Positions 8,991 through 57,929 of a DNA stretch of 64,000 bases are shown here, in pieces (positions within the stretch are counted from its first letter, which is position 1; every line of letters begins with the position of its first letter). The translations under genes and the position numbers were made by a program. Origin of the DNA: an uncultured Candidatus Saccharibacteria bacterium (GTDB lineage Bacteria; Patescibacteriota; Doudnabacteria; UBA920); assembly GCA_964532425.1 (NCBI GenBank), contig CAZHIA010000001.1, positions 270,846 to 334,845 on the forward strand. The letters run 5' to 3'. The notes beneath the pieces were generated by a model. The model made no database searches, was not told where the DNA came from, and worked only from the letters and a program-made list of their open reading frames with translations.

Positions 8991-9120
8991 ATGGGTATTA
9001 TACCATACTAGACGTGCCGTCCTCTCATTTTTTACCGACAGTCATGCCAATAAACTAATAGAAAGATTAAAGATAGAAAAATAGAAAGATTTGAACTGGC
9101 AACTAACATATCCTCAAATG

Positions 9121-9150
9121 CAGGAGCGGGTTGAGACCCTGCCCCAATGT
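9121..9150. repeat. REP-like GC-rich hairpin (GGAGCGGGTTGAGACCCTGCCCC), part of a roughly 100 bp tandem duplication
   Basis: Same core as the REP family at 9219, 23056, 23374, 23626, 57006 and 57901. Confidence 0.5.
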
Positions 9151-9218: not shown

Positions 9219-9250
9219 TGTAGGGGCGGGTCGAGACCCGCCCGTCAAGA
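9219..9250. repeat. REP-like hairpin GTAGGGGCGGGTCGAGACCCGCCCGTCAAGAG
   Basis: GTAGGG head with a GGGCGGG/CCCGCCC stem. It is preceded by an AGAAAATAGAAAAATAG motif that duplicates the upstream unit. Confidence 0.55.
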
Positions 9251-11623: not shown

Positions 11624-11667
11624 CACACATTCCATTTTTGTCCGGTCGGACAAAAATGGAATGTGTG
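11624..11667. repeat. 44 bp hairpin palindrome CACACATTCCATTTTTGTCCG-GT-CGGACAAAAATGGAATGTGTG (P2 family)
   Basis: Perfect 21 bp stem. The same core (ATTCCATTTTTGTCCGGTCGGACAAAAATGGAAT) recurs at 29984..30037 and 30685..30718. Confidence 0.8.
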
Positions 11668-11712: not shown

Positions 11713-12267
11713 TTATTTGTATCTGAACAACAGTTCTTCCAAAACAGCCTGATACTGTTTCCTTATGGATTCATCGTGGCCCACTTCGAGTACTTCATCG
11801 TTGAGGTTGGTAGCGGACGAAGTCCAGTTAAAGGAACCGGAGGCATAAGCCTTGTCCGTGACGATAGCCTTTAAGTGCATAATAGCCGCATGATCCTGGA
11901 GAACCACGGGAATACCGGCTTTGCGCAAACTGTCGATGATGTCCTTTTGTGAATCGAGTTGTTGGTACTGGGACCGGTCGGAGACGCCGCGGACATCCAG
12001 GCCGCGGTACTTGGCTGCCAGGAGAGCGTCGCGGATATCGGTGCGGGTAAAGGTATAGATGGCAAAGTAGACATACTTGTCCGCATCCTGCGTCAGCTGA
12101 ATGACCTCGCGGTTGAGCTGGTGCTGCTGGTTGTAATAAACTTTTATCTCGCGCTCATGCGCCGGCTTGTATTTGTAATCGTACAAAACCTGGCCGCATA
12201 AACCTAATAGCAGAATGATTACTACTATATAGAGTATGTCGCGCTTGAATTTCATAATAAAATCCAA
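11713..12267 (-). CDS. phospholipase D-like (HKD motif) family protein, Nuc-like endonuclease, membrane-anchored
   Basis: HLKAIVTDKAYASGSFNWTSSA matches HxK(x4)D(x6)GSxN. N-terminal TM. The true start may be the ATG at 12255 (MKFKRD), because codon 12267 is TTG. Confidence 0.75.
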   Translation of the reverse strand: MDFIMKFKRDILYIVVIILLLGLCGQVLYDYKYKPAHEREIKVYYNQQHQLNREVIQLTQDADKYVYFAIYTFTRTDIRDALLAAKYRGLDVRGVSDRSQYQQLDSQKDIIDSLRKAGIPVVLQDHAAIMHLKAIVTDKAYASGSFNWTSSATNLNDEVLEVGHDESIRKQYQAVLEELLFRYK

Positions 12268-13147: not shown

Positions 13148-13186
13148 AACCGTATTGTACCATGTGTTATACTATGTGTGGAATCC

Positions 13187-13222
13187 AACGTTAATCATCC
13201 GCGGCCGCGGATGATTAACGTT
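13187..13222. repeat. 36 bp palindrome AACGTTAATCATCCGCGGCCGCGGATGATTAACGTT (P1 family, NotI core)
   Basis: Perfect palindrome immediately upstream of the wHTH-Cas2-like gene. Relatives at 13786 and 22331. Confidence 0.8.
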
Positions 13223-13249
13223 GTAGACAATTTTATTAAGCTTTTTTAT

Positions 13250-13786
13250 ATGCCAGCTAAGAAAAGCGATTATATGTTGGAGGCTCTGGAGGTGCTATTT
13301 AACATCGGCAGCGAAATGATTCGATCCCTACCGCTACCGCTTGAAACGCCATACGAACATCTCCGTCGCGTGAGAAGTCTTCCGTATAAGACATACTATG
13401 ATTCCATGCACCAGCTCCACAAACGGGGTGTGGTTCGCATTTCGAAAAAGGATGACCGGTATTTTATAGAGTTAACACAGAAAGGCGCTTTGGAGATGCT
13501 GATGGAAAAGGCGGGGATGGATCATCAGGGAGCGTGGGACGGCAAATGGCGTTTGATTATTTTTGATATTCCGGAGAAGGCTCACTTGCAGCGCGATCGG
13601 CTGCGCTGGCTACTTAAAAAGAACGGCTTTATTAAACTACAAGCCAGCGTATTTATAAACCCATACCCGTTCAACCGTCAGGCGATAGCGTATTTGGAGG
13701 AAACCGGGCTGAATAAATATATTCGCATCCTTCGTGTGGACGATATGGGCGATGATAAAATCCTAAAAAAGAAGTTTAACCTGTAA
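13250..13786 (+). CDS. winged-HTH + Cas2-like (PaaX_C-type) protein, putative transcriptional regulator (paralog 1)
   Basis: N-terminal wHTH-like region. The C-terminal region WDGKWRLIIFDIPEKAHLQRDRLRWLLKKNGFIKLQASVFINPY matches the Cas2/VapD beta-alpha-beta pattern (vvvYDi..R.r..k.L..yG.rvQ.SVf.c). The ORF-track N-extension to 12923 overlaps smpB and is rejected. Confidence 0.6.
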   Translation: MPAKKSDYMLEALEVLFNIGSEMIRSLPLPLETPYEHLRRVRSLPYKTYYDSMHQLHKRGVVRISKKDDRYFIELTQKGALEMLMEKAGMDHQGAWDGKWRLIIFDIPEKAHLQRDRLRWLLKKNGFIKLQASVFINPYPFNRQAIAYLEETGLNKYIRILRVDDMGDDKILKKKFNL

Positions 13787-13821
13787 ACGTTGATCGTTCG
13801 CGGCCGCGAACGATTAACGTT
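13786..13821. repeat. 36 bp palindrome AACGTTGATCGTTCGCGGCCGCGAACGATTAACGTT (P1 family)
   Basis: Overlaps the stop codon of the wHTH-Cas2-like gene. Confidence 0.8.
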
Positions 13822-22330: not shown

Positions 22331-22366
22331 AACGTTGATCGTTCGCGGCCGCGAACGATCAACGTT
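22331..22366. repeat. 36 bp perfect palindrome AACGTTGATCGTTCGCGGCCGCGAACGATCAACGTT (P1 family)
   Basis: Identical in architecture to the palindromes flanking the 13250 gene. Confidence 0.85.
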
Positions 22367-23055: not shown

Positions 23056-23657
23056 GTAGGGACAGGTCGCGACCTGTCCGTACAGGGAACAGCTATGTTT
23101 CAAAGAAAAGCCAATCGTTTGCAAGAATACGATTATTCCCAGCCGGGGTATTACTTTATTACCCAGTGCGTACAAGATCGGAGATGTTGTTTGGGAGCGG
23201 TGGTCGGTGGGGAGATGGTGTTGAATGAATACGGGAAGATCGTGCAGCGACAATGGCAATGGTTGGCCGAACATTTTCCAAATGTACAATTAGATGAATT
23301 TCAGATCATGCCCAACCACGTGCATGGGATTGTGATCATAACCCCGGCGGGAAACGGCCAGGGTGGTGTGTTTGTAGGGGACGGTCGCGACCGTCCCGTA
23401 CAGAAACCGCTTCCCGATTTAATCGGCGCATTTAAAACCACATCGTCAAAACTGATCCACCGTGCAGGTTTTACCGATTTCTCTTGGCACCGGTCCTTCT
23501 ACGACCACGTCATCCGCAAAGACGAATCGTTAGACAAAGTAAGGGAGTACATTCGTAACAATCCCAAGCAGTGGGAATTGGATGAGGAGAACCCAATCAA
23601 TATAAAGAAAAGTTAAATACCCCCTGTAGGGACAGGCATTGCCTGCCCTCCATACAG
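23056..23657 (+). mobile_element. IS200-like RAYT element: REP-associated tyrosine transposase gene flanked by, and interrupted by, cognate REP palindromes
   Basis: REP copies at 23056..23085 (GTAGGGACAGGTCGCGACCTGTCCGTACAG), 23374..23403 (inside the ORF) and 23626..23657 surround the HUH transposase ORF. Confidence 0.7.
23095..23616 (+). CDS. REP-associated tyrosine transposase (RAYT, IS200/IS605 TnpA-like Y1 HUH transposase)
   Basis: HUH motif MPNHVHGIVII and the C-terminal catalytic-Tyr region SFYDHVIRKDESLDKVREYIRNNPKQWE. A roughly 14 aa insertion (GQGGVFVGDGRDRPVQKP) is encoded by an in-frame REP copy. Confidence 0.75.
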   Translation: MFQRKANRLQEYDYSQPGYYFITQCVQDRRCCLGAVVGGEMVLNEYGKIVQRQWQWLAEHFPNVQLDEFQIMPNHVHGIVIITPAGNGQGGVFVGDGRDRPVQKPLPDLIGAFKTTSSKLIHRAGFTDFSWHRSFYDHVIRKDESLDKVREYIRNNPKQWELDEENPINIKKS

Positions 23658-23692: not shown

Positions 23693-23727
23693 TTACAAAA
23701 ACCGCCATCCATTCGGATGGCGGTTTA
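23693..23727 (-). terminator. terminator of the LysM-CHAP gene (minus strand)
   Basis: CCGCCATCC-gaat-GGATGGCGG followed by TTTTT on the minus strand. Confidence 0.65.
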
Positions 23728-23762: not shown

Positions 23763-24926
23763 CTAGGGGTGTATAAATCCTTTCACGCTCGAGCTGCCGA
23801 TCGGAATCCAGCGGTAGTCGACTTTGCCGAATTTTTCGTAGTTCATTTCCGAAACCAGGAAGCGGTCGTCTTCTACCTGTTCAACCAGCGCAACGTGGCC
23901 GTAACGGCGGCTGTCATTGGTGACCACGATGGATCCGACTGCCGGCGTGTTGCTTACCACGGCGCCATATGCCTTGGCGTTGGCCAGCCAGGATTTGGCA
24001 TTGCCGCCCCACGGCACATGAACTTTAGTCGAAACATAGTAGGTGCAATAGCCCCATGGGAACAAGTGCCCCGTGCCTTCGTCGTATACGCGCGGCGTTG
24101 CCACGCCGGAACCGCCTACCTTGCTCGGGTCGGTTTTTGGTTTGGGTTTGGCTTGCGGTTTGGGCGCTGGCGGCAGCGGCATATGGCCGCCCGGAACGAT
24201 AATCAGTTGTCCCGCCGTGATATCTTCGGCATTCTCCAGGCCGTTATATGAAATGATGGTATCGAGATTACCGGAGTATTTTTTGGCGATGTCGGGCAGG
24301 GTGTCATTGCTGGTGGCTTTGACCAGGACGCCGTTAGTCGGCAGAATAATTAACTGCCAACCGGGCTTTAATACGGTCGAAGTCGAGATCTTGTTGGCAT
24401 CAGCCAGTGTTTGTACGGTGATGCCGTTGGCAGTAGCGACGGAAGACAAGGTGTCCTTGTCTTTAGTCTCGTAGATTTTGATCTGTTTGGCAATGAGGCT
24501 GTCTACGCTGTCTGGGTTTGGTTTGACTATCGCGTTCTCGTTGATGACCAGTCCGAAATCGTCGGAGTTGTCAAAATATGAGTCGTTGGCATTCAGGCCT
24601 TGGAAATCATCGGCGCTGGCCTGGCTGATAAAACCGCCCGGACTGACCATGACGGTGTTAATGCTCGTTTCCTTGGCATAGAGCTTGTTGTTCAGGGACA
24701 CGTGGTAGGAGAGAAGTTTGGCAGCGTGGCTGTCATCGGTATACATGCGCGTATGGAAGAATCCGAAGTAGTAAATGTTCAGCCCACCGACGACAAAAAC
24801 CAAGCCCAGGACGAGCATCTCACTGGAGAATTTCAAAGATATATCCATCCAATCCATCTTTTTGACATGGACCGCTGGGAATGCGTTTATGTGAACTCGT
24901 TTGAACTGAGGCAGCCGCCGGCTCAC
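23763..24926 (-). CDS. membrane-anchored peptidoglycan hydrolase with two LysM domains and a C-terminal CHAP domain
   Basis: LysM-like segments (DTLSSVATANGITVQTLADANKI, DTLPDIAKKYSGNLDTIISYNGL). C-terminal Cys/His CHAP signature (GYCTYYV ... RYGHVALVE). The true start may be internal (MDWMDISL...). Confidence 0.7.
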   Translation of the reverse strand: MSRRLPQFKRVHINAFPAVHVKKMDWMDISLKFSSEMLVLGLVFVVGGLNIYYFGFFHTRMYTDDSHAAKLLSYHVSLNNKLYAKETSINTVMVSPGGFISQASADDFQGLNANDSYFDNSDDFGLVINENAIVKPNPDSVDSLIAKQIKIYETKDKDTLSSVATANGITVQTLADANKISTSTVLKPGWQLIILPTNGVLVKATSNDTLPDIAKKYSGNLDTIISYNGLENAEDITAGQLIIVPGGHMPLPPAPKPQAKPKPKTDPSKVGGSGVATPRVYDEGTGHLFPWGYCTYYVSTKVHVPWGGNAKSWLANAKAYGAVVSNTPAVGSIVVTNDSRRYGHVALVEQVEDDRFLVSEMNYEKFGKVDYRWIPIGSSSVKGFIHP

Positions 24927-29983: not shown

Positions 29984-30037
29984 CATGCGACATATTCCAT
30001 TTTTGTCCGGTCGGACAAAAATGGAATATGTCGCATG
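29984..30037. repeat. 54 bp perfect hairpin palindrome CATGCGACATATTCCATTTTTGTCCGGTCGGACAAAAATGGAATATGTCGCATG (P2 family)
   Basis: Immediately upstream of wHTH-Cas2-like paralog 2. Confidence 0.85.
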
Positions 30038-30091: not shown

Positions 30092-30649
30092 ATGGCAAGG
30101 AAACACAAGCGGAACAGTAAGGAGGTCAAATTGACAGTCGCTGGGCATATACTAATATATTTGCTAGTAGGAATAGATTTGTTGCCCCGGCCGTTTGAAC
30201 ATAAAACCGCCTACGTCAAAAGAATTTTTAAAGGACAAGTCGCTTACTCGGCCTATTGGTCAGCCGTACAGCGCCTTGAGCGGCTTGGTTTAGTGATTGA
30301 AAAAGAAGACGATAATGGAAATATTGTATTCGCATTGACTGAGAAGGGGAGACTCGAAGCTTTATTTGAGAAAGCGAAGATTCAGAAGCAGGAACCGTGG
30401 GATGGAAAATGGAGATTGATGATCTTTGATATTCCTGAAAAGGCCCGCCATCAGCGCAGATTATTGCGCTATTTATTGAGAAAGAATCAATTTGTTAAAT
30501 TGCAAGAAAGTGTCTTTATTAGCCCTTACGCTCTGAATGTTGAAGCGATTGCGTATTTAAAAGAAACTGGCTTGAATGTATATATTCGTCTGCTTCGCGT
30601 AGACCAAATGGATGATGATAAGGACCTTTGTAAGAAGTTTGGTTTATGA
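30092..30649 (+). CDS. winged-HTH + Cas2-like (PaaX_C-type) protein, putative transcriptional regulator (paralog 2)
   Basis: About 45-50% identity to the 13250 protein across the C-terminal half (WDGKWRLMIFDIPEKARHQRRLLRYLLRKNQFVKLQESVFISPY...AIAYLKETGLNVYIRLLRVDQMDDD). Confidence 0.6.
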   Translation: MARKHKRNSKEVKLTVAGHILIYLLVGIDLLPRPFEHKTAYVKRIFKGQVAYSAYWSAVQRLERLGLVIEKEDDNGNIVFALTEKGRLEALFEKAKIQKQEPWDGKWRLMIFDIPEKARHQRRLLRYLLRKNQFVKLQESVFISPYALNVEAIAYLKETGLNVYIRLLRVDQMDDDKDLCKKFGL

Positions 30650-30684
30650 GTTTAAAAATCATATTTGCTGCCCGAACCAGGAAC

Positions 30685-30718
30685 ATTCCATTTTTGTCCG
30701 GTCGGACAAAAATGGAAT
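30685..30718. repeat. P2-family hairpin palindrome ATTCCATTTTTGTCCGGTCGGACAAAAATGGAAT
   Basis: Directly downstream of paralog 2; same core as the repeats at 11624 and 29984. Confidence 0.8.
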
Positions 30719-30979
30719 ATAACAAATAGAAGAGGATGAGTATGGTTTTGAAGGTTGGGTTTGGATTAGAAATGAATCGGAAATGAATGGAAAATGGTTC
30801 CCGGTTTGTAGGATGTGGTTATTGGGAAAAAATTTTGTGGACAAACGGGGTTTGTGGTATAATATTTGCAAGAAATGTAGAGCGAGTTTCGGAAATAAAG
30901 GTTCACTCTGTAAACAGCACGGAAGTGAACCTGTATTAGCTCCTCGGCTCGCTCGTCCGCAAGCGGCCGGCCTCTCTCT

Positions 30980-57005: not shown

Positions 57006-57036
57006 CTGTAGGGGCAGATCCCGACCCGTCTCTGCA
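57006..57036. repeat. REP-like element CTGTAGGGGCAGATCCCGACCCGTCTCTGCA
   Basis: Shares the CTGTAGGGG head with REP copies at 9219 and 23626. Confidence 0.45.
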
Positions 57037-57900: not shown

Positions 57901-57929
57901 GTAGGGGCGGGTTTGAAACCCGTCCCTAC
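57901..57929. repeat. REP-like hairpin GTAGGGGCGGGTTTGAAACCCGTCCCTAC
   Basis: Same family as 9219 and the RAYT-associated REPs. Confidence 0.6.

Follow-up and report, generated by a model that had tools for sequence, protein, structure and literature searches.

A subclass 2.4-like RAYT gene flanked by REP palindromes and carrying a family-typical REP in frame in its beta3-alphaC loop

Subclass 2.4 of the TnpA_REP (RAYT) proteins, equivalent to Bertels group 4, has been described by Quentin, Siguier, Chandler and Fichant in 2018 (BMC Genomics 19:475, PMC6006769). The subclass was defined by the motifs NH[IFV]H, WQ and YIxNNP together with a variable insertion between beta3 and alphaC, and a REP inserted in tnpAREP was given as its defining peculiarity. 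The insert was considered to have little impact, and the residues contacting the GTAG guide sequence were reported to include Q95 of the E. coli TnpA_REP (PMC6006769). In-frame REPs have also been described in other genes, not in RAYTs (Di Nocera 2013, PMC3733652), and our literature search found no later functional work. The locus presented here is an ordinary REPtron of the described subclass, in which the in-frame REP has been known since 2018 (PMC6006769), and is compared below with these systems and with its own homologues.

The window, meaning the whole 64-kb stretch of DNA that was analysed, contains one copy of a RAYT gene (TnpA_REP, 173 aa, 23095..23616 on the plus strand), which was identified as subclass 2.4-like from its open reading frame, a Pfam match, sequence motifs and a structural model. 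RAYTs are said to be single copy per genome and vertically inherited, a view reportedly from Bertels in 2017. The start of the gene is the ATG at 23095, as shown by the conserved N-terminus, and the NCBI protein P0001 begins instead at the TTG codon of L33. A co-directional peptidase S51 gene is the 5' neighbour, and the upstream REP (GTAGGGACAGGTCGCGACCTGTCCGTACAG, 23056..23085, plus strand) is located 13 nt past the stop of this gene and 9 nt ahead of the RAYT ATG. This copy was identified both as a palindrome and by a match to the family pattern, its 14-nt arms are mismatched at one position, a G.G pair at the foot, and its DNA fold is -11.6 kcal/mol (z = -4.3). The internal REP (GTAGGGGACGGTCGCGACCGTCCCGTACAG, 23374..23403, plus strand; DNA fold -12.9 kcal/mol, z = -3.5) is in frame, falls in the beta3-alphaC loop and encodes V94-Q103 (VGDGRDRPVQ). 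The downstream REP (GTAGGGACAGGCATTGCCTGCCCTCCATACAG, 23626..23657, plus strand; fold z = -3.0) begins 10 nt past the stop codon and is imperfect. The locus has the anatomy of a REPtron and consists of a REP, a RAYT with an in-frame REP and a further REP. A preliminary description of this DNA had recognised the gene as a RAYT, the GTAG-type REPs on both sides of it and the copy of cognate type placed in frame after the HUH motif and before the Tyr motif, and each of these was confirmed, the copy at 23626 being the imperfect one.

A promoter scan of the interval from the peptidase stop codon to the RAYT start codon found no promoter-like site, and the RAYT is therefore likely to be transcribed by read-through across the upstream hairpin. 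A 12-bp perfect hairpin (AAACCGCCATCC-ATTC-GGATGGCGGTTT, 23699..23726, no strand assigned) is located between the RAYT and a convergent LysM/CHAP gene on the minus strand (23763-24926) and is probably a terminator common to the two genes.

Across the window, the family pattern gave six strand-matches at four sites relative to 0.01 expected from shuffles. The copies were folded as single-stranded DNA and scored against shuffled sequences, and five of them were significantly stable (23056, 23374, 23626, 9220 and 57901), with z from -3.0 to -4.9. The two outside the RAYT locus were an intergenic member of the GTAGGG family with another stem (GCGGGTCG, 9220..9249, plus strand; z = -3.3) and an intergenic 'double-foot' REP (GTAGGGGCGGGTTTGAAACCCGTCCCTAC, 57901..57929, no strand assigned; z = -4.9). 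Two further sites, which had been included in an earlier count of seven copies, are decayed relics that fold no better than shuffles; one is located at 57006..57035 on the minus strand (three mismatches to the family pattern, z = -0.2) and the other, a REP-like relic at 9120..9150 on the plus strand, is in a duplicated spacer approximately 100 nt upstream of the 9220 copy (z = -1.0). The window total was therefore five well-formed copies and two relics in 64 kb. Stem sequences vary from copy to copy, all copies except the one within the RAYT are intergenic, and the window copies are GTAG-tagged REPs in the sense of a palindrome of 20-40 bp ending in GTAG (Di Nocera 2013), a family for which a high copy number and a mainly extragenic position are also given. 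The internal and upstream copies have an unusual 3' end in common (CCGTACAG) and differ at 6 of 30 positions, which correspond to three compensated stem pairs; because of these pairs the internal REP is no recent duplicate of the flanking one. The codons of A85-Q89 (AGNGQ, 23347-23361) were also considered as a decayed half-REP like the 'VGNGR' half-copies in P0020, P0024 and P0034, and this candidate was dropped as unproven with a match of only 9 of 15 nt by eye.

The RAYT protein was matched by Pfam Y1_Tnp (PF01797) at 29.1 bits, above the cut-off of 23, and by the NCBIfam equivalog REP_Tyr_transpos (NF047646) at 46 bits, under the curated cut-off of 80; the equivalog score was accordingly given no part in the case for membership. 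A sequence search of the PDB gave only a weak match to 4er8 (E = 0.0038), and the fold comparison was therefore used for identity. Foldseek of the AlphaFold2 model (pLDDT 86.4, pTM 0.82) gave its best rmsd in the PDB to 4er8_A, the E. coli TnpA_REP bound to REP (TM 0.60/0.63, rmsd 2.9 A), and also matched the TnpA proteins of IS608 and ISDra2, with E of about 1e-6 to 4er8, 2xm3 and 2vjv. All 16 residues invariant in an alignment of 55 homologues are present in the window protein, including P73, N74, H75, H77, a W, Y152 and N156. The HUH motif P73-N74-H75-V76-H77 (NHVH; 23311..23325, plus strand) was located by this alignment and by the modelled strand 75-82, which is beta3. The W-motif block W131-H132-R-S-F-Y-D137-H138-V-I-R141 (23485..23517, plus strand) was located by a HMMER alignment to 4er8_A and by the homologue alignment, and the codon of the catalytic Tyr152 (23548..23550, plus strand) is part of the motif YIRNNP.

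In the AlphaFold2 model the HUH strand is followed by a coil (83-105), a helix (106-123) and a later helix bearing Tyr152 (143-162). The peptide encoded by the REP is in the coil, where pLDDT is below 50 at residues 89-98, and the model places the insert in a disordered surface loop. The insert lies between beta3 and alphaC, and Tyr152 is on a helix later than alphaC; its assignment to the stretch between HUH and Tyr had been correct, and the helix that follows it is alphaC and not the one carrying the catalytic Tyr. The in-frame insert is real, but the palindrome itself encodes ten residues rather than the 18 that had been quoted. The whole loop is approximately 9-13 residues longer than in the REP-less homologues L013, L034 and L046.

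A sister strain was available for comparison. An exact look-up of P0001 gave no contig, and the sister-strain contig (L081, Logan SRR11567528) was reached via the neighbouring peptidase gene. It contains the same pair of peptidase S51 and RAYT genes, with upstream and internal REPs identical to those of the window, so that an uninterrupted RAYT, which the preliminary description had suggested looking for in other strains, was not what this strain carries. Six synonymous changes and one conservative change (I71V) separated the two RAYT genes over 166 codons, a pattern which at the sequence level shows the gene to be under purifying selection. The C-terminus and the downstream REP of L081 differ from those of the window; its downstream REP is GTAGGGGCGGGTCGCGACCCGCCCGTACA, the TAG of which serves as the stop codon. 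The RAYT gene is intact. The insert is tolerated, because the sister strain has an identical insert together with mostly synonymous differences. Inactivation of the transposase, one of the two outcomes originally offered, is unlikely given the full set of invariant residues, the confident fold with the insert in a disordered loop and the substitutions relative to L081; tolerance, the other outcome, was the correct one.

Of the 1,618 relatives identified by a protein search, most came from Patescibacteria, Omnitrophota and further uncultured groups, and the 120 relatives listed had lengths of 141 to 216 aa. Almost every aligned member had a same-site peptide such as VGNGRDRSLQ, VGTGRDLSLQ or VGNGLKPFPT, and these back-translate to GTAGGG...CCCTAC palindromes. 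Homologues with 46-69% identity bear the orthologous palindrome at the same site (VGNGRDRSLQ, VGNGLDRSLQ and similar). Eighty genomic loci were examined at the DNA level, from Patescibacteria, Chloroflexota, Bacteroidota, Nitrospirota, Omnitrophota, Cyanobacteria, Nitrosomonas, Calditrichota and others, and 77 genes were scored for a loop hairpin. Of the 77 genes, 66 (86%) had a perfect stem of 8 bp or longer in the HUH-alphaC loop, while equal-length adjacent coding DNA of the same genes, taken upstream or downstream, gave such a stem in only 2/72 and 2/77 cases. With the limit raised to 14 bp, stems were found in 32/77 loops and in none of the adjacent DNA, and the mean longest stem was 11.1 in the loop, 5.1 in the flanks and 4.9 in codon-shuffled sequence. 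This adjacent-DNA control is free of dependence on sequence selection. The self-insertion had been thought unusual, which does not agree with a palindrome in the same loop of most homologues across many phyla and with its published standing as the hallmark of subclass 2.4 (PMC6006769).

Most of the loop hairpins were perfect 28-nt palindromes, GTAGGG-N8 followed by N8-CCCTAC, and the number of palindromes per loop ranged from 0 to 4 (L061, L052, L066, L038). A few members, such as L013 (Pontibacter) and L034 (Flavobacterium), had a REP-less loop and yet flanking REPs, while a hairpin was absent at both gene ends in 25/77 genes, most of which retain the internal palindrome. The internal palindrome was repeated just outside the gene in 32/66 loci, usually at a distance from the internal copy of some 320-390 nt on the upstream side and 260-350 nt on the downstream side, and since the same sequence flanks the gene in these loci the internal copy is of the gene's own REP type. 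For 29/66 internal palindromes no similar copy was found in the locus DNA, which extended up to 10 kb on each side. A scan of a single metagenome for the window's exact REP subtype located this subtype in extragenic DNA, inside other genes and at a second RAYT site, and gave no further copies in the beta3-alphaC loop. On metagenome contigs the window's REP type was also found in frame in genes resembling those for GAPDH, thioredoxin reductase, a P-type ATPase and ArgRS.

Judged by the sequences compared, the loop element is conserved as DNA and not as peptide. Roughly half of the genes use the frame GTA-GGG through the palindrome and the rest use xGT-AGG-G, and no case of the frame giving TAG was found among the loop palindromes. 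The sequence GGGGCACGGCATGCCGTGCCCC is translated to VGARHAVPLQ in L050 and to RGTACRAPT in L037, L071 and L079, while GGGACAGGTCGCGACCTGTCCC gives VGTGRDLSLQ in L009 and GRDRSRPVPT in L080, and asymmetric REPs were found in both orientations. The stems of different lineages differ by paired changes (GGCGGTTCG, GACAGGTCG, GGCACGGCA, GGCGAAAAA, GAACGGTTT); between L001 and the window, for example, the replacement of N by D occurs together with that of S by P and corresponds to a change from an A-T to a G-C pair. Identical cores of 20-22 nt were present in genes with a third-position identity of only 0.37-0.56 in the highly conserved HUH block, and such cores thus persist despite saturation of synonymous sites. 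A covariation count was obtained from alignment A2, with 92.8% of cells paired and 120 double-sided changes, but the sequences had been picked as hairpins and the count is therefore circular. It was not relied on, and the adjacent-DNA control and the two-frame evidence were used instead.

The explanation that we consider highly probable is that the locus consists of a single intact RAYT of subclass 2.4 with GTAG-footed REPs around it, and that its third REP is typical of the family and in frame. The RAYT would be an HUH/Y1 single-strand DNA endonuclease which, by analogy with the E. coli TnpA_REP (PMC3733652, PMC6006769), would bind hairpins in single-stranded DNA and cleave them at the GTAG foot. 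Activity on REPs is accordingly a prediction for the subclass 2.4 proteins, the window RAYT included. Ten extra residues rich in Gly, Arg, Asp and Pro would be tolerated in the beta3-alphaC loop because the loop is predicted to be disordered and away from the active site. Palindromes of the GTAGGG...CCCTAC type can persist inside genes because two of their three frames are without a stop codon, and this holds for either orientation since the sequences are palindromic. Recombination, or exchange mediated by the RAYT, may keep the internal REP in the same way as the other REPs of the genome; alternatively, there may be selection on the hairpin. The WH motif, the NCBIfam score of 46 relative to 80 and the difference between the internal copy and the flanking REP were counted against this explanation. 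Mere tolerance, moreover, does not by itself explain the occupancy of one loop in 86% of genes, nor the internal palindromes in genes without a flanking hairpin. Selection on the internal REP as a cis-element, whether as a heritable, protected master or seed copy physically linking the protein to its target or as an autoregulatory site, is a possibility that we rate as rather unlikely. In the autoregulatory case it could act as an mRNA hairpin or as a site of RAYT binding or cleavage in the gene's own single-stranded DNA. Such selection would account for the occupancy of a single loop across phyla, for perfect 14-bp arms and identical cores among synonymously saturated neighbouring codons and for the internal palindromes that lack hairpins at the gene ends or a similar copy in the surrounding DNA. 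It is less easily reconciled with the REP-less members that are still flanked by REPs, with the variable copy number in the loop, with the use of both frames and, for asymmetric REPs, of both orientations, and with the presence of in-frame copies of the same REPs in unrelated housekeeping genes. The conservation would be explained just as well if the internal copy were continuously homogenised with a conserved pool of extragenic REPs, and the published view is that of an insert with little impact (PMC6006769).

A recent and unusual event in which a REP inserted into the gene of its own transposase, perhaps inactivating it, is highly improbable on these data. The REP-like palindrome with a 3' end common to the upstream copy and the longer loop relative to REP-less homologues speak for such an event, but the palindrome is orthologous at the same site in homologues of 46-69% identity, is unchanged in L081 where the gene is under purifying selection, leaves every invariant residue in place and differs in three compensated pairs from the flanking REP. 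Even less credence can be given to coincidence, in which the peptide would be conserved for protein reasons and the palindrome would be a chance product of back-translation. Many close homologues do have a similar peptide in common (VGxGRDRSLQ), and the preliminary description had proposed that a loop of this kind in homologues would make the likeness to a REP coincidental. The loop is indeed present in homologues, but it is itself REP DNA that is read in two frames and matches the flanking REPs. One DNA palindrome gives unrelated peptides in the two frames, paired substitutions in the stem change two residues at once, the model has no confident structure for the peptide, the identical sequence is extragenic beside genes, and the peptide is missing altogether from some family members.

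For each subclass 2.4 RAYT the internal palindrome provides a built-in barcode of the cognate REP, and the gene by itself is therefore enough to pair a RAYT with its REP in fragmentary metagenomes. The features added here to the 2018 description are the two frames, the occupancy of 66/77 loops, the identical cores at synonymous saturation, the REP-less members and the use of a REP TAG as a stop codon. A question dating from the 2018 work, whether selection acts on the internal REP or the element is neutral, is sharpened by the finding that the conservation lies in the DNA and spans two reading frames. If the internal REP were a selected seed copy, the nuclease and its target hairpin would be certain to be inherited together; and if it were a selected cis-element in general, the loop occupancy of about 86%, the persistent perfect arms and cores and the internal copies without flanking REPs would be accounted for.

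In comparison with known systems, the window locus is closest to subclass 2.4, an assignment that rests on motifs and on homologues sharing the REP-insert hallmark. The HUH motif N74-H75-V76-H77 fits NH[IFV]H, Y152-I-R-N-N-P157 fits YIxNNP, REP DNA is in frame between beta3 (75-82) and alphaC (106-123), and long REPs with a 5' GT[AG]G foot are located within +/-1000 nt of the gene (23056-85 and 23626-57). The absence of a C-terminal extension domain, the three G-C pairs at the stem base, the 'double-foot' variants and the patchy spread over phyla are also as in this subclass. Unlike the subclass, which has WQ, the window protein has WH at the W-motif (W131-H132); the Q is nearly invariant in homologues and WH is also found in L081, L002 and L057. 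We take this single-residue departure as compatible with membership and not as excluding it. The window REPs further differ in having a G.G mismatch at the foot (GTAGGG...CCGTAC), which makes them single-foot, the GTAG being confined to the coding strand, and the nearest relatives of the window RAYT are from Patescibacteria and Omnitrophota, whereas Cyanobacteria, Bacteroidetes and 'various phyla' are named for the subclass (PMC6006769).

The E. coli TnpA_REP (YafM, PDB 4ER8, subclass 2.2) has the same HUH/Y1 fold and a gene flanked by GTAG-footed hairpins, and its residues W94, E100, H101 and R104, which take part in recognition of the GTAG, align to the conserved W131, D137 (with D in place of E), H138 and R141. 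The two proteins have approximately 18% identity, with DHLH in E. coli and NHVH here and with Q95 corresponding to H132, and the E. coli gene is without an internal REP, while the E. coli REPs have bulged long stems. The GTAG/CGTC-tagged repeats (Di Nocera 2013) and the Rickettsia palindromic elements (RPEs) are likewise short GC-rich palindromes lying in frame in surface loops of otherwise normal proteins. These intragenic elements are, however, sporadic and their site varies by gene, whereas in subclass 2.4 RAYTs one loop is filled in most members. The TnpA proteins of the IS200/IS605 group (IS608, ISDra2) are similar in their catalytic fold and in the recognition of subterminal hairpins on single-stranded DNA. 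Those hairpins are imperfect and are located at the ends of a mobile multicopy element, while in the window there is one RAYT copy and the hairpins are GTAG REPs scattered in intergenic DNA.

The REP subtype found in the window (GTAGGG...GGTCGCGACC...CCGTACAG) was also present on metagenome contigs as in-frame copies within genes unrelated to RAYT. Four such copies were located at L082 (~625-654), L083 (3024-3053), L094 (4044-4073) and L099 (11692-11721), in translated contexts that were judged by eye to be GAPDH-, thioredoxin reductase-, P-type ATPase- and ArgRS-like, and the peptide contributed by the REP in these genes was VG[TA]GRDL[SP]VQ. Two metagenome RAYT genes, on contigs L096 (5982-6011) and L103 (5078-5107), carried the REP at a second insertion site, which is not the beta3-alphaC loop but lies after the 'CCFG' beta-hairpin of the N-terminus (window residues ~31-40).

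REPs were also found at the ends of RAYT genes. The RAYT stop codon was the TAG of the GTAG foot of the downstream REP in the sister-strain contig L081 (1262-1291) and in seven of the 77 homologues compared (L021, L022, L047, L073, L074, L076 and L078). The third REP reading frame, which is forbidden within genes, serves as the gene terminus in these RAYTs.

A comparison of the window RAYT (23095-23616) with that of L081 (739-1266) revealed a mosaic of identity and divergence. The 669 nt upstream of the gene, comprising the peptidase gene and spacer, were identical and no codon differed before codon 71, while seven of the 96 codons compared in the stretch from codon 71 to 166 were different. 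Past the codons compared, the 3' end of the RAYT and the downstream REP were unrelated between the two strains. This mosaic pattern of differences suggests that recombination breakpoints lie within or beside the RAYT gene.

An identical core, GGGGCGGTTCGCGAACCGCCCC, was identified in RAYT loci from Chloroflexota, Omnitrophota, Nitrospirota, Calditrichota and Terriglobia (L010, L011, L014, L015, L027, L028, L033, L040 and L054), usually as part of the 28-mer GTAGGGGCGGTTCGCGAACCGCCCCTAC. The core was intragenic in all of these loci except L054, where it was downstream of the gene. REP stem sequence followed protein subclade, with the alphaC motif (FKTVSTK) serving to define the subclade. The sharing of the core across phyla, together with the tracking of protein subclade by the stem, is suggestive of a REP-RAYT specificity code or, alternatively, of the horizontal spread of whole REPtrons, RAYT genes bracketed by their own REPs.

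Both the RAYT of the window and that of the sister strain have His132 (window 23488-23490) in place of the near-invariant Gln of the family WQ motif. This Gln was aligned with Q95 of E. coli TnpA_REP, which is listed among the residues interacting with the GTAG guide sequence (Quentin 2018, PMC6006769). The local REPs of the window have an unusual G.G mismatch in their foot (GTAGGG...CCGTAC).

Two further palindrome families were observed in the window. The second family, of the AACGTTGATCGTTCGCGGCCGCGAACGATCAACGTT type, consists of long, near-perfect palindromes unrelated to the RAYT REPs, with copies on either side (13184-13225 and 13786-13821) of a PaaX_M/Cas2-like winged-helix gene (13253-13786) and a third copy (22331-22366) that precedes, by ~60 nt, the peptidase S51 gene adjoining the RAYT. 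These palindromes may be operators of the PaaX_M/Cas2-like regulator. The third family, of the ACATTCCATTTTTGTCCGGTCGGACAAAAATGGAATGT type, has arms of 17-26 bp and flanks a paralogous PaaX_M/Cas2-like gene (30092-30649) at 29984-30037 and 30683-30720, with another copy (11624-11667) located 46 nt downstream of a putative PLD-like gene (11713-12267, minus strand) recognized by eye from its H-x-K motif. Given this two-copy bracketing, the paralogous regulators are both surrounded by palindromes, each by a family of its own. The regulator loci therefore resemble the REPtron in that a gene is bracketed by its own palindromes, but differ from it in having no transposase.
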